Made by a program: the position numbers and the translations under genes. 64,000 bases of DNA from an uncultured archaeon (GTDB lineage: Archaea; Thermoproteota; Bathyarchaeia; Bathyarchaeales; Bathycorpusculaceae): contig CAWALK010000020.1 in the NCBI GenBank assembly GCA_963782915.1, forward strand, positions 390,487 through 454,486, in the 5' to 3' direction. A model generated the notes under the pieces. That model worked only from the letters and a program-made list of their open reading frames with translations. It did not search any database and was not told the origin of the DNA. Shown here in pieces: positions 2,051 to 58,225 of the stretch; the stretch's first letter is position 1, and each line of letters begins with the position of its first letter.

Positions 2051-2146
2051 ATAGCCAAAATTAATTTCTTTTAATTTTATTAATTTAGCTTTTAAAGCCT
2101 AATTTTACTTTTCTAAGCAGCTATTTTCTTCGCAATAGATAATGCT

Positions 2147-2288
2147 CTGTGCTGTTCTGGCTGCGGTTTATTATACAAGCATATTGTAACCCAAAACAGA
2201 CGCGGCAACCAAAAAGCAATAGCACCGCAAAGTCCGCTGGTAGATGATGAGCATAGTGGGTCTAGCCATTATCTACCCCTAGAAAACC
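2147..2288 (+). repeat. Dispersed ~140-bp intergenic repeat, copy A (variant hairpin)
   Basis: CTGTGCTGTTCTGGCTGCGGTTTATT...GCAAAGTCCGCTGG aligns to copies C and D; hairpin GGTAGATGATG (2239-2249) pairs with CATTATCTACC (2267-2277). Confidence 0.8.
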
Positions 2289-2494
2289 AACCTCCAACAC
2301 AGCCTCAAACCAACCAAACGATTCCAGTCTGAAAACAACTGTAAACAAAACCCCAATAGAACCCAACAAACCCCTAACCACCTAAACAAAAAGATTGCAC
2401 TCATACAATCCCCAAGCACCCAGCTAGGCAGTTGTGTGTCTATAAATAAGGGAGGGGGTAGGTGCTCTGAGGTAGGTAGGTCCTGTTAAGTCTA

Positions 2495-2635
2495 AAACTG
2501 AACTGCTTGCGTAAAACGCTACAACCAACCTGCAACCCAAACCAAACGCACAACACCAAACGCATTGCGCAATAAAGTCCGTTGGTTGTTGTTGTGTATA
2601 AGGGTTTTTCGGCAACAACAACTATAGAAAAAACC
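2495..2635 (+). repeat. Dispersed ~140-bp intergenic repeat, copy B
   Basis: CTGCTTGCG...CAACCAACCTGCAACC...AAAGTCCGTTGG, then hairpin GGTTGTTGTTG (2584-2594) / CAACAACAACT (2613-2623), then ATAGAAAAA. Confidence 0.8.
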
Positions 2636-2642
2636 GACTAGA

Positions 2643-3266
2643 TCACTGTTTAGGATAAGTGGTGCTATTTTTGTGCTGTTTAAACATGTTAACCAAATAC
2701 ACCCACAAAACAAACCCAATAGTATTAGCAGCAATCATCGAAAAGTAAATAGTATCAACAATATGCACTGCAGTGCTAAATGGCGAAACAAGCACTAAAA
2801 TCAAACCCATAGCCATAGACTCCAAAACAAACCCCATCGCAGCCGCTTTTAGAAGATACCATTTTCCAGTAATTCTGGAAGCGAGCAAACCCGCGATTAA
2901 CCCAATCAGAATCGTTGACACCGCACAGGGAATCGCAGTCAATCCTCCATAGAGATACCGATGGACGCCGCCGATTAATCCTGCCACAACTCCGCCGATG
3001 GGTCCAGCGGCTGCTCCGGCAATCATGGTTGCAAATTCCCGGACGTTAATGACTATGCCGCCTTCTAACTTCATGCCCCAAAGCGTTCCAAAAATCGCCA
3101 AGACACCCAACACGACACCGAATAAAACCTTGGCTAAGATGCCCTTTTTGGGTCCTTGGAGTTTGTTTAATGTTAAGCCTGAAGCGATGAGTGCTACAAC
3201 AATCATGGTGCATGCGGTGCCTAAAAGACCCAGAACGCTTGCCAAATTTTCAGTTAAGGGAACCAT
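2643..3266 (-). CDS. Stand-alone LytS/YhcK-type 5TM receptor (5TM-5TMR_LYT) domain protein
   Basis: IFGT...INVRE...AGAAAGPIGGVVAGLIGGVHRY...C..STIL.G pattern typical of the LytS sensor membrane domain; no kinase domain follows. Confidence 0.85.
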   Translation of the reverse strand: MVPLTENLASVLGLLGTACTMIVVALIASGLTLNKLQGPKKGILAKVLFGVVLGVLAIFGTLWGMKLEGGIVINVREFATMIAGAAAGPIGGVVAGLIGGVHRYLYGGLTAIPCAVSTILIGLIAGLLASRITGKWYLLKAAAMGFVLESMAMGLILVLVSPFSTAVHIVDTIYFSMIAANTIGFVLWVYLVNMFKQHKNSTTYPKQ

Positions 3267-3306: not shown

Positions 3307-4182
3307 TTATGGGTTGAGTGCATGCCAAATAACCAAGCGCCACTCCGTATCATATATCCCAATAGTTATCCAGTATGCTTCTTTGGCTACAACTTGGTTT
3401 TGGGTTTGATCAAGATTTTTAACGTAGTATTTGTAGCTGCCAAAACCGGATTGCTGCTCAGAAACTTGCCGCGCGAAGGCTTGCACTTCCGGGTACTCTG
3501 CGTATATTGGGTCGGTGAGCAGGTTTTTGCCTTGCTGTGCTGGGTCTGGGTCATAGATGAGGGTGCCGTTTGCTTGCATAGCCCACATAGCGTACTGCAC
3601 TGCATCGCCGGAGCCAGACGCGATTGATTGGTTAATCAAAGCGCTGGGTTGAATAACGATGCTTATTGAACCCATGAATTTGTTGCCGCTGTCAAAAATG
3701 GGTGCTGCCATGACTGCGCCGGGAAAACCTTCTACCAGCGGAATCATGTTGCTCATGGCTGGCATCATGGTTTCATGAACGCTGATGATGTGTTCTTGCA
3801 TGCTAATGTCTTCTCCGACAATGCTGCTGTAGCTGCTGGGTTGAGTTGCAACCAAAATGCCTTTCACATCTACTGAAGAGGCGCTAACTATGAGCGAGCT
3901 GTTAGCGGCAAGGTCACTTAGAACGGTTTCTGCTTGGGTGCCTGTTAATCCAGCTGCAGAAAGTTTTTGGCATGCGGACCTTAAGGCACTGTCGAGTGAT
4001 GCAAGTTTACTGTTTATGTTGTTTTGGGTGTGCATAAGTTGGCTAACCATTTCTTGTTTTACGGTTGATTCCTGATTCTGTTGGGTAGCTGAGAGGGTTG
4101 TGTTATATTGGTAAATATTGAAACCCAACGATACAACCATGACGACGATTAGGGCGAAAATTACTAGTTTGGATTTAGCCAT
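3307..4182 (-). CDS. Membrane-anchored Cache-domain protein (no cytoplasmic output)
   Basis: N-terminal TM; LVEGFPG..MAAPIF...FMGSISI, NGTLIYDPD, and terminal YW..IGIY.TEWRLVI typical of double-Cache domains. Confidence 0.8.
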   Translation of the reverse strand: MAKSKLVIFALIVVMVVSLGFNIYQYNTTLSATQQNQESTVKQEMVSQLMHTQNNINSKLASLDSALRSACQKLSAAGLTGTQAETVLSDLAANSSLIVSASSVDVKGILVATQPSSYSSIVGEDISMQEHIISVHETMMPAMSNMIPLVEGFPGAVMAAPIFDSGNKFMGSISIVIQPSALINQSIASGSGDAVQYAMWAMQANGTLIYDPDPAQQGKNLLTDPIYAEYPEVQAFARQVSEQQSGFGSYKYYVKNLDQTQNQVVAKEAYWITIGIYDTEWRLVIWHALNP

Positions 4183-4263: not shown

Positions 4264-5121
4264 TTAGAGGGTGCGCGCGATAACTAGGCGCCAATCAGTG
4301 TTATAGATGCCAATAGTTGTCCAGTACCCATCCTTGTTAACAAGAGGTCTTCCCTGCGCAAGATCATCATAGTAGCTGTATGTGCCGTATCCTGACTGTG
4401 TATCTACAACTTGGTGGATGAATGTTTGGAGTTCCGTGTAGCCTTGATATTCTTGGTCGGTGAAGATGTTTTTGCCCTGTTCTCCGCTGTTGGCGTCGTT
4501 GGCATCATAGATTAATGTGCCATTGCTTTGCAATGCATAGATGGTGTAGGTGCCTTTGGTTGAGTCTTTAACGATTGGGTGTATCACTTGGTAGGGTTGG
4601 AAAACGATGCTTAGTGAGCCGATGAATTGTTCGTTTGGGTTGAAAATCGGCGAAACCATGACTATTCCGGGGAATCCTTCTACAAGTGGGATGAGGTTGC
4701 TGAGTGCGGGTCGCATGGTTTTGTGCATTTGCAAATTCTGTTCTTGGTTCTTGATGTCTTGGCCTATGATGCTGCTGTAGTTACTGGGTTGCACTGCTAA
4801 TAGAATGTCGTTTTGGTCTGCTGTTGCAGCATTGACTATTACTGATGGGTTGTTCGTGTAGAGGTCACTTAAGATTTTGTCCGCTTGTGAACCCGTTAAG
4901 CCAGCGGTGGATAACTGTTGGCATGCCGTTAAGAGGATGCCGTCTAGCCTTAAAAGTTCCGCATTAATCTCGGCTGCGTCATGAATAAGGATCTGAGCCA
5001 TTTCTTCTTTATCACTCTGCTTTGAAACAGCAAGGTTGCTGCTCCATTGGTAACCATTGAATGCTAACGAGGCGACAACGATCACGATTAAGGAGGCAAC
5101 TATTAGTTTGGTTTTAGCCAT
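4264..5121 (-). CDS. Membrane-anchored Cache-domain protein, tandem paralog
   Basis: Clear similarity to 3307-4182 (IPLVEGFPG, NGTLIYD, GKN, IGIY.T.WRLVI). Confidence 0.8.
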   Translation of the reverse strand: MAKTKLIVASLIVIVVASLAFNGYQWSSNLAVSKQSDKEEMAQILIHDAAEINAELLRLDGILLTACQQLSTAGLTGSQADKILSDLYTNNPSVIVNAATADQNDILLAVQPSNYSSIIGQDIKNQEQNLQMHKTMRPALSNLIPLVEGFPGIVMVSPIFNPNEQFIGSLSIVFQPYQVIHPIVKDSTKGTYTIYALQSNGTLIYDANDANSGEQGKNIFTDQEYQGYTELQTFIHQVVDTQSGYGTYSYYDDLAQGRPLVNKDGYWTTIGIYNTDWRLVIARTL

Positions 5122-7471: not shown

Positions 7472-7913
7472 TGCTGTCTGGTGTTGTGGGTGCTTTGTGT
7501 TTCTTTAAGGTTGCTCTGGGTTTGACGGATTTTTTGCCGAGGATTGGTTGAAGAGTTTGCCGCAACCATTGGCGCTAAAAGAAGGGTCTTATGTGATTTT
7601 TGCCTATCCCCCCTCTATTTATAGGCTCAACAAGTGTTGGGTTGGGCGTTTTGGTTGTCTGCATTCATTGGTTTAATGGTTAAGATAAGTTGCGTTTGTT
7701 GGAGAATTTGTCGGGTTTCTATGCGCCTGTTTTTGTACTCTATTGGCTTTGGCTGGTTTGGGGTTTGTTGCTGTGCCAAGACCTCCCTATCCCCTATTAA
7801 AAGAAGCCTTTGCTGCTCTGCCGACCCTCCCCCTCCCTTATATATAGAAACAATAGGGGCAGTTTGGGCTGGCGAAAACATCTCCGCCACTATGAGATAG
7901 CGGTATATTCCAA

Positions 7914-18686: not shown

Positions 18687-18717
18687 TCCCCTTTTATCAG
18701 TTGATCAATAGTTTATT

Positions 18718-18859
18718 GGCTTGTTCTGCTTGCAGGTTATTGCACAACCAGTCTTCAACTTGAAGACCGCTTAGAAAACAAAAAGCAACTGTTCCCTTAG
18801 TCTGTTGGTTGTTGTTGTGTATAGGCGGTTTTTGGCAACAACACACTGTAGAAAAACAG
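18718..18859 (+). repeat. Dispersed ~140-bp intergenic repeat, copy C
   Basis: TTGTTCTGCTTGCAGGTTATTGCACAACC...AAAAAGCAA..., then hairpin GGTTGTTGTTG (18807-18817) / CAACAACA (18836-18843), then TAGAAAAAC. Confidence 0.8.
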
Positions 18860-18886
18860 ATAACCCCCAACTTTAATTTTACCGTT

Positions 18887-20980
18887 TTATCTTTCTATCG
18901 AGATTTTGCTAACACCCGCTTCCTTATCCAAAATAATCACATGGTCGCCTTTGGCAGCGAAATCTTCACTATGCGTTACCGCAATAATCTGCTCAATAGC
19001 CTTGAATCGGCTAATTGCCTCAGCCAACCGTTCAATGCTGCCGTCTTCACTGCCCAAATTCTCCGTGGGCTCATCAAGCATAAGCATACTCAAACCGTGG
19101 CCAGTGCGGGACTGCATAATCAACTGCCCCAAACCAAGTCGGTAAGCAAACGCCAACAACGTGCGTTCGCCGCCTGAAAGGTTAGCTACTTCTCGGTCAA
19201 CTCCTGCCTCGCTTTTCACGTAGGGCGTGTAGGTTTCGTCGATGACTACGTTTAGCATGGGTGTTTCGCCGCCGACTAAGTTGTCGAGGATTTGCTGTAC
19301 GAAGTTGCGTAGTACTTTGACGAATTCGCTGCGTAGTTTGGGTTGGATGCTGCGGTAGGCGTCGCGGACTGCGCTGAGTAATTCGACGGTTCGGCGGATT
19401 TTTTCCATGCGCTCCAGTTTTTCCTGTGCGAAATTGATGCGGTCTTTGGTGTCGTCTAATCGGCGGGCTAAGTCTTTTTTGCGGTTCTCTTTTGTGCGTA
19501 AATCTGATTCTACGGTGTAGTATTGTTTGAGGGCTTGGTCTTTTTTGTCTTTGGCTGCTTGGAGTTCAGATAAGTCGAATTTGCTGATTTCAAGGACCAA
19601 AGCTTCGAGTTCGCCGTGCTGCTCAACCTCTAGCCGCTGCTGCATCTCAAGCTCGGCGGTTAGGGTTTTGAGGTTAGTTTCTTCCTCAGCAATCCGCGAT
19701 TTCAGGTCAGCGCCTCGTGTTAGGCAATTCTGCAGGTTAGTGTAGGCTTCGGAAGCTACAGTTTTGGTTTTTTGTAGGGTAGCAACTTCGAGTCGTAGGT
19801 GGTTGATGGTTTTTTCCCGTTCGCTGTTTTCCTGTTTTATGCTGGACAATAAATCAGTCTTATAGTTGCCCAGTAAGGGTTGGCTGCAAACGGGGCATTT
19901 GCCTTCCCCAGTTTCAACCAATGTAGCGGCTCTTTTCTGGTCCTGCTGAATGCCCCGTGAGGTGGCTTCCTGTTCAGCTCGCATCTGAGAAATCTTATCA
20001 TCCAAACCCGCTAAGAATGGTGCTAGCTGCTCAAAGGGCTGATTAGCTGGCAACCCCGCCTGCTCCAGCTTGGCTAGGCACAGCTTCATTTGGCTATCCA
20101 AAGAGGTTTGGCGTTGCTGGAGGTTGTCGATGATGGTTTTTTTGCCCTCAACCCGCTCGGTAAGAGACGCCAAGTTTCGGGTCATGTTGGCGATGTTGGC
20201 GTTTACCCTTGCTTCTTTGCGTTTGAGTTCTTCTATGGCGAGTTTTTTCTCTTCGGAACGTTTCAGCCTCAGGTCAGCTTCTTCCAAAGCCCGTTTAGCG
20301 ACTTCTAGTCTCTGCGCTGAATCTTCCAAATCCATCTCTAAAAGCGTGAATTCTTCGCTTGCCCTGTTATACTCGGCGCTAAGCTTCTCCAAACCCACCA
20401 CATCGGGGTCCTTCTCATACACCCGTTTCTCAGTTTCGTAGTCGCGTTGGTACTGGGCAATGTTGCTCCAAGCCACCTCATAATCGGATAAGCCAAACAG
20501 TTCATCGAGGCGAGTTTGCCTATCGCGGGGCTTCGCATCCAGCAGTTCCTTAAGGTGTTCTTGGCGGAACCAAACAATCTCGCGGTACAAATCTCGGTCT
20601 AAGCCAGTGATGGCTTTGAGTTGTTCTGCGATGGCGTCAGTTTTCATGCTGGCAAGCAGCTTTTCCTCTTCAAAGAGTTTTAGCTGTTCTATGTCTTGTG
20701 TTATGCTTTTGCCCTTGCGTTTTAAGCCTCGGACCAACTTGTAGGTGTTGCCATTATGGCTAAACTGAACCGTAACTCGGCACCAATCTGCCCCTTCACG
20801 CATCAAATAATCAAAACTACGCCCAACCGCATCCCCGAACAGGGCAAAATCGACTGCGTAGAGGACACTGGATTTGCCGCATCCCACTCCCCCAACAACA
20901 CAGTTGAAGCCATGCGTAAAGGGCACTGTGGATTTGGTGTGGCTGCGGATATTTTCCAGCACAACTACGTCGATTTTCAT
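18887..20980 (-). CDS. rad50: DNA double-strand break repair Rad50 ATPase
   Basis: Walker A GGVGCGKS, coiled coils, Zn-hook CPVC, signature LSGGE, Walker B LDEPT, VTH; overlaps mre11. Confidence 0.92.
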   Translation of the reverse strand: MKIDVVVLENIRSHTKSTVPFTHGFNCVVGGVGCGKSSVLYAVDFALFGDAVGRSFDYLMREGADWCRVTVQFSHNGNTYKLVRGLKRKGKSITQDIEQLKLFEEEKLLASMKTDAIAEQLKAITGLDRDLYREIVWFRQEHLKELLDAKPRDRQTRLDELFGLSDYEVAWSNIAQYQRDYETEKRVYEKDPDVVGLEKLSAEYNRASEEFTLLEMDLEDSAQRLEVAKRALEEADLRLKRSEEKKLAIEELKRKEARVNANIANMTRNLASLTERVEGKKTIIDNLQQRQTSLDSQMKLCLAKLEQAGLPANQPFEQLAPFLAGLDDKISQMRAEQEATSRGIQQDQKRAATLVETGEGKCPVCSQPLLGNYKTDLLSSIKQENSEREKTINHLRLEVATLQKTKTVASEAYTNLQNCLTRGADLKSRIAEEETNLKTLTAELEMQQRLEVEQHGELEALVLEISKFDLSELQAAKDKKDQALKQYYTVESDLRTKENRKKDLARRLDDTKDRINFAQEKLERMEKIRRTVELLSAVRDAYRSIQPKLRSEFVKVLRNFVQQILDNLVGGETPMLNVVIDETYTPYVKSEAGVDREVANLSGGERTLLAFAYRLGLGQLIMQSRTGHGLSMLMLDEPTENLGSEDGSIERLAEAISRFKAIEQIIAVTHSEDFAAKGDHVIILDKEAGVSKISIER

Positions 20981-23834: not shown

Positions 23835-23964
23835 GATTCATCAGCATCTTCTCAATTAGTAAGAGGTGTAATTAAGTCATGCTTTGCTGATGGTTTAACC
23901 GCATCATGCTTTGTTTTTTATAGTTAGTAGAAAATGGCGGAGAGCCTCTATACTCTTCTTCTTC

Positions 23965-24055
23965 CTGTGGGCTGGCAGGTGGCTGCTTTTTGGTTTCTGC
24001 GTTGGTGGTGGTTGCAGGCGTTTGAAGAGAATTCCGCAAGCAGATACAGTTAGCC
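23965..24055 (-). repeat. Dispersed repeat, partial copy E (5' part, no hairpin)
   Basis: Reverse complement reads TCTGCTTGCGG...CGCCTGCAACC...ACGCAGAAACCAAAAAGCA. Confidence 0.6.
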
Positions 24056-24164
24056 AACCAGAAGCATTAACTTGCCTACCTCAGGGACCTCCTTATTGCT
24101 AATAGGACCTATGGTACTCTGCCACTGATCCCCTATAGTAGTAGATTAAAAGTTGGTTGGTGTT

Positions 24165-24310
24165 CTTGTTTTTCTTTATTGTGTTGTTGGTAGAAAGCCC
24201 CTATATACAACAACAACCAGCGGCGTTTGCGGGCGATTGTGTTTTAGCTTTAGCGTCCAGAGTTAGGTTGCAGGCGGGTTGTGCAATAAACCGCAACCAG
24301 AACAACACAG
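24165..24310 (-). repeat. Dispersed ~140-bp intergenic repeat, copy D
   Basis: Reverse complement reads CTGTGTTGTTCTGGTTGCGGTTTATTGCACAACC...CCGCTGGTTGTTGTTG-N18-CAACAACA...AGAAAAAC. Confidence 0.8.
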
Positions 24311-36254: not shown

Positions 36255-36501
36255 TTTGTTTTTCACCGAAAGATGATACATCAAAAAGGTATTTGTTGAC
36301 TAAGGAACAAGCAAACCTAGTCACAAAAGATTGTTTGGATTTCTTTTTTCTGGTGTTAGAAGAAGGCACAGACTCCCTTACACATCTTCTTACTATGGAC
36401 TTGGCGGCGAGTTGTTTTTTAAGTTCGGAAGGGTTCTGTGGCTTACTGGCTGGTTGTGAAGCAAAAATTGCTGATGGGTAGAAGATTACTGGGTGTGATT
36501 T

Positions 36502-54498: not shown

Positions 54499-55611
54499 CT
54501 ATGAAGTGGGTAGAGTTTGTCCATTGAAGGTTATTGACGCAATCGTTGTTTCATCGAGTTGTACTACGTTGTTTGGTAGTGGTGCATATCCGAGTGCAGG
54601 TCCCAATGCTTGTCCGTCGTGGATTACATAAGAGAGAAATTGCACGAGTGCTGTGGCTTGTTGTTCGGTTAGATTCGGGATTACGTTGAGTTCTTTGTAG
54701 ACGATCAGGTAGGTAAAGCTTACAATTGGGTATGCGTTTGCATCGCCTGTGTTGAGTAGGTTCACGCTTGTCCAGCTTGCACTGCCGGCTGGTAATCCAG
54801 TGACTGCTTGGGCTGCTGCTGTTGTTGATGCTAATGTTGGGAGGATATAGTTTCCTGATGGGTTTTGGACTGCTGCTACGGTCATACCGTTTGTTACTGC
54901 ATATGCAAGTTCAACGTAGCCGATTGCATATTGTGTGCTGTTGACTGTTGATGCTACACCTGTGTTGCCGTTTTGGCCAATTCCGCCTGTCCAAGATACT
55001 GATTTGCCTGAGCCGATTGTGGTGTTCCATGATGTGCTTGCTTTACTTAGGTAGCTTGTGAAGATGAATGTGGTTCCTGAGCCGTCTGAGCGGTGGACTG
55101 TTGTGATGACTTGGTTTGGAAGGGTGATGCCGGGGTTTAAGTTTTGAATTGCGGCATCGTTCCATTTTGTAATTGTTCCTTGGAAGATGTCTGCGATGAC
55201 CTGTCCGCTAAGTTTTAGTCCCGAGGATACACCTGGTAGGTTGTATGCGATGGTTACTGCACCGATTGTTTCAGGAATGTGGAGTGCGTTTGGTGCGTTT
55301 GTGGTTTCAGAGGCGGTTAGGGGTGCATCTGAGCCTGTGAAATCAGTGTTTTTGCTCTTTAAATCCGAGATTCCGCCGCCGCTTCCGATTGCTTGATAGT
55401 TTATTTGGACGTTTGATTTTATTGTTTGGTAATGTGTTATGGTGCTGTTTAGGAATGGATATGGGAATGTTGCGCCTGAACCGTTTAGTGTTACTGTGGC
55501 TTCGGTTGCGCCTGGTTGGGAAAGATATGCGTATGCTGCTACTGCACTTATTGCTATGACTATTGCAAGGATTGCGCCTATAATGGTATATTTAGTACTC
55601 ATATTTTTCAC
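54499..55611 (-). CDS. pstS: Phosphate-binding protein PstS
   Basis: GSGATFPYP, IGSGGG, GSDAPL, HRSDGSGTT, IGYVE, YPIVSFTY. Confidence 0.96.
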   Translation of the reverse strand: MKNMSTKYTIIGAILAIVIAISAVAAYAYLSQPGATEATVTLNGSGATFPYPFLNSTITHYQTIKSNVQINYQAIGSGGGISDLKSKNTDFTGSDAPLTASETTNAPNALHIPETIGAVTIAYNLPGVSSGLKLSGQVIADIFQGTITKWNDAAIQNLNPGITLPNQVITTVHRSDGSGTTFIFTSYLSKASTSWNTTIGSGKSVSWTGGIGQNGNTGVASTVNSTQYAIGYVELAYAVTNGMTVAAVQNPSGNYILPTLASTTAAAQAVTGLPAGSASWTSVNLLNTGDANAYPIVSFTYLIVYKELNVIPNLTEQQATALVQFLSYVIHDGQALGPALGYAPLPNNVVQLDETTIASITFNGQTLPTS

Positions 55612-56949: not shown

Positions 56950-58225
56950 TTAGGTTGTGGGCAAACTTTGCCCGTTGAAGGTTATCGATTGTATTGTTGC
57001 TTCATCGATTTGCACTACGTTTGCTGGCAGTGATGCGTATGATAAGCCTGGTGCTAAGCTTTGGCCGCTGTGAACCATGTACCATAGGAACCGTACTAGT
57101 CCTGCTGCTTCTGCTTGTGTTATGTTGGGTATTGCGTTGAGTTCTTTGTAGACTATGATGTAGCTGAAGCTTACGATTGGGTAGGAGTCTGTGCCTGCTG
57201 CATTGAGGATGTTTACGCCTGTCCAACTTGCACTGCCTGCTGGTAAGCCTGCGGATGCAACTGATTGTGCAGCTGCAGTTGTTGAGGCTAATGTTGGCAT
57301 TACCCATGTTCCCGCGGGGTTTTGGATTGCTGCTACTTTCATCGAGTTGGCTATTGTGTAGGCTAATTCAACGTAGCCAATGGTGTATGCGTTGCCTTCT
57401 ACGATTCCGGCGACGCCTGAGTTGCCGCTAGAGGCTAATCCTGCAACTGGCCATGACACTGATTTGCCTTGTGAAACGCTTGTACTCCATGTGGAGCTTA
57501 CTGCACTGAGGTATCCTGTGAAGACAAAGGTTGTTCCTGAACTTTCAGAGCGGTGGACTGGAACTATGTCTTTGTCTGGTAGAGTTGTGGTTGGGTTGAG
57601 AGCTTGGATTGCTGCGTCGTTCCATTTTGTGATTGTTCCGAGGTATATTTTTGCGATGACTTCACCTGTTAAGTGTAGGCCTGTTGGGATTCCTGGTAGG
57701 TTGTATGCCATGGTTACTGCGCCGATGGTTTCTGGGATATGTAGTGTGTTGGGTAGGTTTGCTGGCTTCTGTGGCGCTTAAGGGTGCGTCTGAGCCTGCG
57801 AAGTCAACGGTTTTTTCTGTTAATGCTTTGATTCCGCCGCCGCTGCCTATGGATTGGTAGTTTACTTGTGCCCAGGTTCTGGTTGCTGTGTAGTCTGTGA
57901 TCATTGCGCCGATGAGTGGGTATGGGAAGGTTGCTCCTGCTCCGTTGAGTGATGCTGGTTCGGGGGTTGGTGTTGGGCTAGGCGAGGCTGTTGGAGCCGC
58001 AGTTGGGGCTACTGTTGGCTTTGGTGTTGGGGTGTGGGTTGGGCTGGTTGTCGGTGAAGCCGTTGGGGTTGCTGTTGGGGTGACTGTTGGTGTAACAGTC
58101 GGGGTTGGTGTTGGGTTTGTGCCTGGTTGGCCTTGGGTTGGGCTTGATAAGTATATGTAACTGAACACTGCTACGACGATGATTACGATCGCGAGTGCGC
58201 CTATAATTTGGTATGATTTTTTCAT
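56950..58225 (-). CDS. pstS: Second PstS with Pro/Thr-rich stalk (indel near 57760)
   Basis: TM, (TP)n linker, GAGATFPYP, IGSGGG; second ORF has HRSESSGTT and IGYVE. Confidence 0.92.

Follow-up and report, generated by a model that had tools for sequence, protein, structure and literature searches.

The repeat that recurs in this window (the whole 64,000-nucleotide stretch of archaeal DNA that was analysed) is probably the internal core of a MITE family, whose members would be moved in trans by an ISH3-like DDE transposase. This reading is preferred because the elements have terminal repeats in common with an insertion sequence, because 4-bp target duplications flank that insertion sequence and a few of the elements, because orthologous sites in relatives are empty and because the family is spread patchily within one genus. 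The initial annotation had described a dispersed intergenic repeat of about 140 bp ending in a hairpin, and had proposed that it is a structured ncRNA, or a REP/BIME-like or non-autonomous mobile element that is recognised as single-stranded nucleic acid. A non-autonomous mobile element is supported by the repeats held in common with a transposase-bearing element, by the target duplications and by the empty orthologous sites. Recognition as single-stranded nucleic acid, as in REP/BIME elements with a HUH enzyme, finds no such support: the partner encodes a DDE transposase, and Y1_Tnp has no match.

The four near-full copies first noted, A to D, are real. They can be aligned over 147 columns with a mean column identity of 76%, and a nhmmer profile built on these four, with two rounds of iteration over the genome that contains the window (G000; 3.28 Mb in 25 contigs, ~45% G+C, 93.5% complete) finds each of them at E<=1.6e-19, placing them at 2156-2286, 2503-2632 and 18725-18855 on the plus strand and at 24301-24170 on the minus strand. 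A genome scan for further copies, which had been proposed, yields many. The whole genome has 189 matches at E<=0.01 and 169 at E<=1e-5, and 131 nhmmer matches span 85% or more of the model's 131 positions, numbers that exclude a chance likeness. Six copies (A to F) are found by nhmmer in the window, so the earlier list was incomplete. The supposed partial copy at 23965-24055 is in fact near-full copy E (24044-23919, minus strand, model positions 1-129), and a sixth copy, F (36464-36346, minus strand), had been overlooked. The fragment suggested at about 7547-7570 has no match at E<=0.01 and bears a weak likeness to the first 30 nt of the core. The boundaries first given were also too narrow: full elements extend ~25-35 nt further on each side and have inverted repeats at their ends. 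The features in the window are as follows.

2133..2648, plus strand: composite element of ~516 bp, taking in the whole span noted earlier; its core-unit-module-core order recurs elsewhere in G000
2133..2144, plus strand: left end of the composite, a putative and degenerate terminal inverted repeat that matches the family left repeat at 8 of 12 positions
2156..2286, plus strand: core copy A (nhmmer E=1.6e-19, model positions 1-131)
2239-2249 and 2267-2277, plus strand: hairpin arms of copy A, a variant (A-rich), mixed-arm stem
2320..2439, plus strand: conserved C/A-rich unit, found upstream of the module in composites and recurring genome-wide
2440..2483, plus strand: second repeat (the "module"), with a TATA-like box at 2440-2449, a G-run at 2450-2459 and a conserved 24-nt tail
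2503..2632, plus strand: core copy B (nhmmer E=6.9e-31)
2584-2594 and 2613-2622, plus strand: hairpin arms of copy B, common stem class
2638..2648, plus strand: right end of the composite, a putative and degenerate inverted repeat
18698..18884, plus strand: copy C, a single-core MITE of 187 bp with its core at 18725-18855 and its hairpin at 18807-18846
18698-18709 (12-mer) and 18871-18884 (stretch), plus strand: repeat-like ends of copy C, as read in the sequence
24139..24301, minus strand: copy D, with its core at 24301-24170 and a right inverted repeat at 24150-24139
23919..24100, minus strand: copy E, with its core at 24044-23919, a variant-class stem and a degenerate module ahead of it (~24100-24074)
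36346..36464, minus strand: copy F, a core without the first 12 positions and with a variant-class stem (nhmmer E=5.1e-12, model positions 13-131)

Read 5' to 3', the composite consists of the degenerate left repeat, core A, a C/A-rich spacer with the ~130-nt unit, the module, core B and the degenerate right repeat. The 5TM-LYT gene (2643-3266, minus strand) ends inside the putative right inverted repeat, its stop codon being at 2643-2645 on the same strand. Copy C has TTTTAT on both flanks (18692-18697 and 18885-18890), and a G-run module (24137-24116) adjoins the right inverted repeat of copy D.

A complete element is ~180-210 bp long and holds the 131-nt core between 12-nt terminal inverted repeats. 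From left to right it has the 12-nt repeat, a spacer of ~15 nt, the core, closed at its 3' end by a 10-11-bp hairpin with an A-run, a spacer of ~20 nt and the second repeat. The terminal 12-mer starts CAGTAGATC. When flanks are anchored on the model, a weak additional motif is seen ~20 nt 3' of the core. Among 109 near-full flanked cores of G000, the left 12-mer is present with at most 3 mismatches in 18, the right in 19 and both in 5, where chance is estimated to give ~2 per side. With at most 4 mismatches, both 12-mers are found in 13 copies of G000, with element lengths of 178-209 bp. At least one inverted repeat is likewise present in 8 of 20 copies in G081 and in 8 of 20 in G099, two other genomes. 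Note that the family inverted repeat can be detected only when it is sought by its own sequence. Unnamed exact inverted repeats between the two flanks have the same distribution as in mismatched flanks, and long target duplications are not found (the longest exact repeat between 65-nt flanks has a mean of 6.08, vs 6.00 in mismatched pairs).

Four insertion-sequence copies, three in G000 (1127-1317 bp) and one in G081 (~1113 bp), also have this 12-mer at one end and its reverse complement at the other. In the two intact copies of G000 the open reading frame encodes a 343-aa protein. It scores 39-43 bits against Pfam DDE_Tnp_1, above the cut-off of 23, and its best NCBIfam model is ISH3 (NF033541), at 181.4 and 172.9 bits, below the equivalog cut-off of 225. 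Judged by these scores, the partner insertion sequence appears to be a distant relative of ISH3 and not a certified member. It is like ISH3 in its size (1.13-1.32 kb in G000), its single 343-aa DDE transposase, its inverted repeats and its 4-bp duplications; it is unlike ISH3 in its score below the cut-off (173-181 vs 225) and in having the TATA-like part of a host repeat as its target in four of four cases. All four copies, those of G000 and that of G081, have perfect 4-bp target duplications, ATAA or TTAT, and all four are inserted in the TATA-like part of the G-run module. Perfect ATAA and TTAT duplications also flank two MITE copies of G081. The MITE and the insertion sequence are alike only at the 12-nt ends and the A-run that follows; their interiors differ. 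A candidate for a fourth insertion sequence in G000 (contig C22, 78443-79511, 1069 bp) was rejected, being a patchwork of other repeats with no similarity to a transposase.

The initial annotation had advised looking for empty orthologous sites, and such sites are found for two loci. None of 11 relatives' loci carries a copy at the L37e site, and the spacer from L37e (1862-2050) to 5TM-LYT, ~590 nt in the window, is 63-100 nt in the related genomes G014, G054 and G072. None of 39 related loci carries the repeat at the site of copy C, between convergent genes for an ABC-ATPase and an SMC-like protein. Six relatives have a spacer of 10-30 nt there, a single T-rich TTAT stands at the empty site in relatives, and two other relatives have a different insert that includes a G-run module. 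A co-assembled homologous contig, 84-96% identical to this region of the window, has copy C and one extra copy beside it.

The distribution of the family was searched with a covariance model of the core. Within the genus, 64 of 120 genomes have the family, and about 20 of these have at least 27 matches. In a sample of the order, 10 of 141 genomes are positive: G000, five of the 12 others of the genus, three of five of the sister genus and one genome elsewhere with a weak match (E=5.8e-4). The family is restricted to one lineage and barely extends beyond the genus. Were the repeats immobile, for example conserved protein-binding or regulatory sites that are inherited vertically or spread by recombination, their conserved blocks of primary sequence and the lack of near-identical copies would be accounted for. 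But orthologous sites are empty at the 11 and 39 related loci, species of the one genus differ in copy number between zero and at least 27 matches, and some of the copies bear inverted repeats and target duplications, which makes this explanation very unlikely.

Several features that define MITEs are found in this family. The elements are short and non-coding (178-209 bp, composites ~516 bp), they have the inverted repeats of an autonomous element, although most copies have lost them, and many dispersed copies exist whose presence or absence varies at orthologous sites. Most likely, these non-coding elements are mobilised as double-stranded DNA, with the DDE transposase supplied in trans by an insertion sequence. 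The copies of this insertion sequence carry the terminal repeats of the MITE and sit at ATAA/TTAT targets that are duplicated over 4 bp. The outer repeats of the MITE appear to have decayed about as fast as unconstrained positions of the core, while several core motifs and the hairpin are retained. Cores are also built into larger mosaics with a second module, the A-B span being one of them.

This second repeat is made up of a TATA-like box followed by a run such as GGGAGGGGG and then by a conserved tail, of which there are two subtypes. G000 has 123 copies of its motif and 220 profile matches. Its arrangement with the cores is strict. Within 150 nt upstream of 147 cores with an intact 5' end, the module occurs 54 times in the same orientation and never in the opposite one, and only 6 module matches are found downstream of them. 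In module-linked cores, the right inverted repeat is often present without the left one. The C/A-rich unit of ~130 nt stands directly before the module or its remnant in 11 of 13 pattern matches in G000. Six of these 11 unit-bearing loci are core-unit-module-core composites, two of them with a left repeat before the first core. In the composites, the first core tends to belong to the variant stem class and the second to the common class. The "tandem pairs" noted earlier are explained by the A-B span being one composite, and the comparison with BIME is apt as a description of a mosaic, in that the cores and this repeated second module are combined in a constant order. The module was also considered as a promoter of the neighbouring genes; this was rejected, its orientation to the flanking genes being even (32, 29, 28 and 24).

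Most copies are old. The median identity among cores is 62% pairwise, 79% to the nearest neighbour and 73% to the consensus. No near-identical pair of copies is found in G000 outside duplicated contigs, and with a nearest-neighbour median of 79% there is therefore no sign of recent movement. A recognisable inverted repeat is present on a given side in only ~17% of copies. Those that have one are not clearly younger, since their identity to the consensus is 0.742, vs 0.722 in copies without. A binomial estimate with ~0.6 identity per unconstrained site predicts that ~22% of copies keep at least 9 of 12 repeat positions per side. The observed ~17% comes near this value, so simple decay of the old copies may account for the missing ends. 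It leaves unexplained why the core motifs outlast the ends: conservation in the core is uneven, with six blocks at a column identity of 0.72-0.87 and a mean of 0.64 in the other 60 columns.

This pattern is one of several that argue against a simple MITE, as the core motifs (0.72-0.87) are better kept than the repeats that a DDE transposase needs. Further points are the lack of near-identical copies and the lack of any excess of inverted repeats when none is named in the search. Of the 120 genomes of the genus, only 11 have the transposase and 64 the MITE; single-contig, copy-rich (at least 27 matches) genomes G064, G099 and G014 have no transposase at E<=1e-20. The strict order of module and then core is not explained by the target choice of the insertion sequence alone. 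Half of the cores (64/125) have neither an inverted repeat nor a module nearby. Finally, none of the 13 two-repeat copies of G000 has a perfect 4-bp duplication, although three match at 3 of 4 positions and the mean match is 1.9, vs ~1.15 in controls.

What may keep the core motifs leads to the hairpin. In the initial annotation, copy A was said to preserve its stem by compensatory changes, and reading of the sequence agrees: three two-sided changes and one G-T pair separate its arms from the common arms. Pairing is also upheld in the family as a whole. In a profile alignment of 125 distinct copies, from which the stem statistics are taken, 81.7% of 1359 stem cells are paired, vs 72.2% in column shuffles, and none of 500 shuffles reaches this value. 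Both T-A and A-T, each in at least 7 copies, are present at 5 of the 11 stem pairs of the 125 copies. Folds of the 3' 60 nt of these copies fall into three stem classes: a common one with a T/G-rich 5' arm (copies B, C and D), one with an A/G-rich 5' arm and a matching C/T-rich partner arm, and a mixed one (copy A). G-T pairs outnumber A-C mismatches in the stem by 100 to 15, 62 of the G-T pairs being at the outermost, doubtful pair; with that pair left out, there are 38 G-T pairs and at most 15 A-C mismatches. The fold of the plus-strand RNA is more stable than that of the minus strand in 111 of 124 copies. When 19 copies taken from five genomes are aligned with MAFFT, RNAalifold predicts the hairpin alone, with 10 pairs, 5 of which have two-sided changes. 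The consensus fold of the 125 copies on the profile alignment has no structure on either strand, and the first 78 nt of the core fold no better than shuffles (median z -0.69). Owing to a 3-nt period in the arms, pairing is just as high (83.5%) in a register slid by -3. As the stem swaps are common to whole subfamilies, the number of independent events of change is small. Pairing of the CAACC block with the 5' arm of the stem was considered as well, and was rejected with the block unchanged in the variant stem class. Inverted repeats can stay complementary through template switching in replication (quasi-palindrome correction). Retention of the hairpin may reflect selection as plus-strand RNA or single-stranded DNA, or self-correction of the inverted repeat in replication.

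The position of the copies among genes was taken from crude calls of open reading frames (ATG start, at least 80 aa), which cover 72% of the genome. Outside these frames lie 149 of the 169 copies. As had been noted from the first copies, they occur in more than one gene context; by the calls in G000 these are convergent, divergent and tandem. Among 148 copies with two flanking frames, the upstream gene is co-oriented in 94 and opposed in 54 (p=0.0013), and within tandem contexts it is co-oriented in 53 vs 26 (p=0.003). Convergent spacers are mildly enriched, with 41 observed vs ~29 expected. In tandem contexts, copies are closer to the 3' end of a gene than to the next start (medians 124 vs 289 and 88 vs 270 nt).

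The core could instead be mainly a functional RNA, carried by a MITE or co-opted by the host, such as a 3'-UTR stem-loop that guards the upstream mRNA or a small RNA transcribed from the module. Pairing upheld through three stem classes, the excess of G-T pairs, the more stable plus-strand fold and core motifs that outlast the inverted repeats are all consistent with this, as are the co-orientation with the upstream gene (94/148), the closeness to gene 3' ends and the module that is invariably upstream in the same orientation (54 vs 0). The same data also hold points against it. The stem swaps are subfamily-wide with few independent events, the register slid by 3 does equally well, and the 5' 78 nt are unstructured, with the hairpin the only structure from RNAalifold. 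No Rfam family matches, the module has no orientation bias to genes and its role as a promoter is putative, and selection against harmful insertions could also produce the biases of orientation and position. A functional RNA as the main explanation is possible but rather unlikely. In its fuller form, which we regard as a tentative proposal, a DDE transposon family would have spread an RNA module of use to the host or to itself (a small RNA with its own promoter, or a stem-loop in 3'-UTRs) through the intergenic DNA of one archaeal genus, and selection would maintain it once the transposon ends have decayed. The TATA-like and G-run module would then be both a putative promoter of the core and the site at which the partner insertion sequence prefers to land.

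A protein-coding origin has far less in its favour. It had been stated earlier that copies translating as fragments of one decayed protein gene would overturn the interpretation, and this is ruled out by the copies themselves. No reading frame is conserved, the best frame being open in 57 of 125 copies, and core lengths do not go in threes but fall in all three classes modulo 3 (64, 38 and 23 copies). The minus-strand consensus has, as read by eye, an open frame rich in hydrophobic residues, but an A-poor minus strand alone lowers the number of stop codons. That the copies are remains of one decayed gene can practically be dismissed.

The initial annotation had also advised looking for a linked HUH gene. 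IS200/IS605 elements are not known to have terminal inverted repeats or to make a target duplication, and they have sub-terminal hairpins at both ends. If the family were REP/BIME-like or derived from IS200/IS605, it would be moved as single-stranded DNA by an HUH enzyme (RAYT/TnpA) that recognises the hairpin. The hairpin near one end, the G-T pairs tolerated on one strand only and the mosaics with a second module could be read in this way. But no HUH gene is found with Pfam Y1_Tnp (PF01797) in G000, a genome 93.5% complete, while the same model is positive in 6 of 14 control genomes; the only match to a TnpB-type zinc ribbon is marginal (E=8e-4). The family has terminal inverted repeats as well as 4-bp duplications, the 131-nt core is far longer than a REP, and the single hairpin is near the 3' end with none at the other end. 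Movement by such an enzyme is highly improbable. Compared with REP/BIME, then, the family is similar in its dispersed intergenic palindromes and its mosaics. It is different in that no RAYT/Y1 gene is found, and in that the element is about five times longer, bears inverted repeats at its ends and is flanked by target duplications in a few copies.

In other archaea, MITEs linked to DDE insertion sequences include SM1-SM4 of Sulfolobus and those of Halobacterium salinarum. Like these, the elements described here are small, non-coding, multi-copy and mostly intergenic, their ends match a resident insertion sequence and the target duplications, seen in a few copies, are short. Unlike the Sulfolobus and Halobacterium MITEs, they belong to a Bathyarchaeia lineage, their internal motifs are better kept than their ends, their likeness to the partner is limited to the 12-nt end and the A-run, and they have a fixed association with a second module. 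Among bacteria, the Correia (Neisseria), ERIC (enterobacterial) and BOX and RUP (pneumococcal) elements are intergenic, often co-transcribed and form stable stem-loops, and BOX is modular. Effects on mRNA stability or termination have been proposed for them, and RNA effects are documented. The present family is likewise structured and MITE-like; those elements are bacterial and unrelated to it in sequence, and an RNA role is here only putative.

The repeat had been said to belong to no known family. This holds for the sequence family: the proposed Rfam search (Rfam 15) gives no match at gathering score in the whole window, with two chance-level matches (E ~6) in 2050-2700. It does not hold for the kind of element, which is that of a MITE. 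A 21-nt pattern of stem and loop has no exact counterpart in viral contigs. A search of a paper library found no account of MITEs in Bathyarchaeia and, judged by titles and abstract openings, none of repeats in Bathycorpusculum. The main text of a 2026 survey of archaeal insertion sequences gives ISH3 in Sulfolobaceae and halophiles, and Bathyarchaeia are absent from that main text (PMC13343696).

A MITE family of high copy number, with its likely ISH3-like partner, is thus described in Bathyarchaeia, apparently for the first time. The family explains the long and variable intergenic spacers of this genome, and could serve as a strain-typing marker for soil and sediment metagenomes. It also carries a warning for annotation, as some genes end inside the repeat ends, a probable example being the stop codon at 2643-2645. 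The persistence of internal motifs and of a strand-biased hairpin after the transposon ends have decayed is of wider interest, as is the constant placement of the module upstream in a single orientation. If these features reflect an RNA function, the family would be an archaeal case of regulatory RNA distributed by a transposon.

In the G-run module, the second dispersed repeat family, a TATA-like box is followed by a G-run and then by a conserved tail, of which there are two subtypes. Searches of the window's own genome (G000) give 123 motif copies of it and, with a profile, 220 hits. Long stretches of this assembly exist twice, on different contigs (C14 vs C20, C5 vs C22, and others), at 84-98% identity. 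This points to a bin in which two related strains or species have been merged, and copy counts would be slightly inflated by it. C14, for example, is syntenic with the window's region. Modules are frequently arranged in tandem, and genome-wide in G000 their orientation relative to genes shows no bias. In the window they are found as follows:

2440-2483, plus strand, G-run module
7840-7826, minus strand, G-run module
within 7880-7600, minus strand, two further G-run modules
24137-24116, minus strand, G-run module

The module may serve as a promoter of small transcripts, or it may be one more mobile module.

Four copies of the ISH3-like insertion sequence were located, three in G000 and one in another genome (G081), and each is inserted at ATAA/TTAT within the TATA-like box of a G-run module. 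The element appears to have a host repeat as its strongly preferred target.

G000 C23:82973-84099, ISH3-like insertion sequence
G000 C18:122595-123911, ISH3-like insertion sequence
G000 C15:305350-306477, ISH3-like insertion sequence
G081 locus L072, ISH3-like insertion sequence

Intergenic DNA of G000 is generally repeat-rich. Other repeat families, with lengths of about 200-300 nt and no relation to the core, are found at C22:78443-79511 and at related places on C14, C19, C9, C15, C24, C20, and C23. The window also has two diverged direct-repeat pairs (70-73% identity), which are probably paralogous neighbouring genes:

54506-55301 and 56957-57761, direct-repeat pair, spacing about 2.45 kb
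3646-3773 and 4594-4721, direct-repeat pair, spacing about 0.95 kb

In two related MAGs, the convergent ABC/SMC spacer, where copy C is located in the window, has a different insert carrying a G-run module. Elements appear to land in this spacer repeatedly.

locus L024, about 2420-2560, G-run-module insert
locus L058, about 2420-2570, G-run-module insert

The 5TM-LYT gene (2643-3266, minus strand) has its stop codon at 2643-2645, within the putative right inverted repeat of the composite, and the SMC-like gene (18887-20980, minus strand) ends with a stop codon at 18887-18889, within the putative duplicated target of copy C. Therefore, element insertions may have reshaped the 3' ends of genes.
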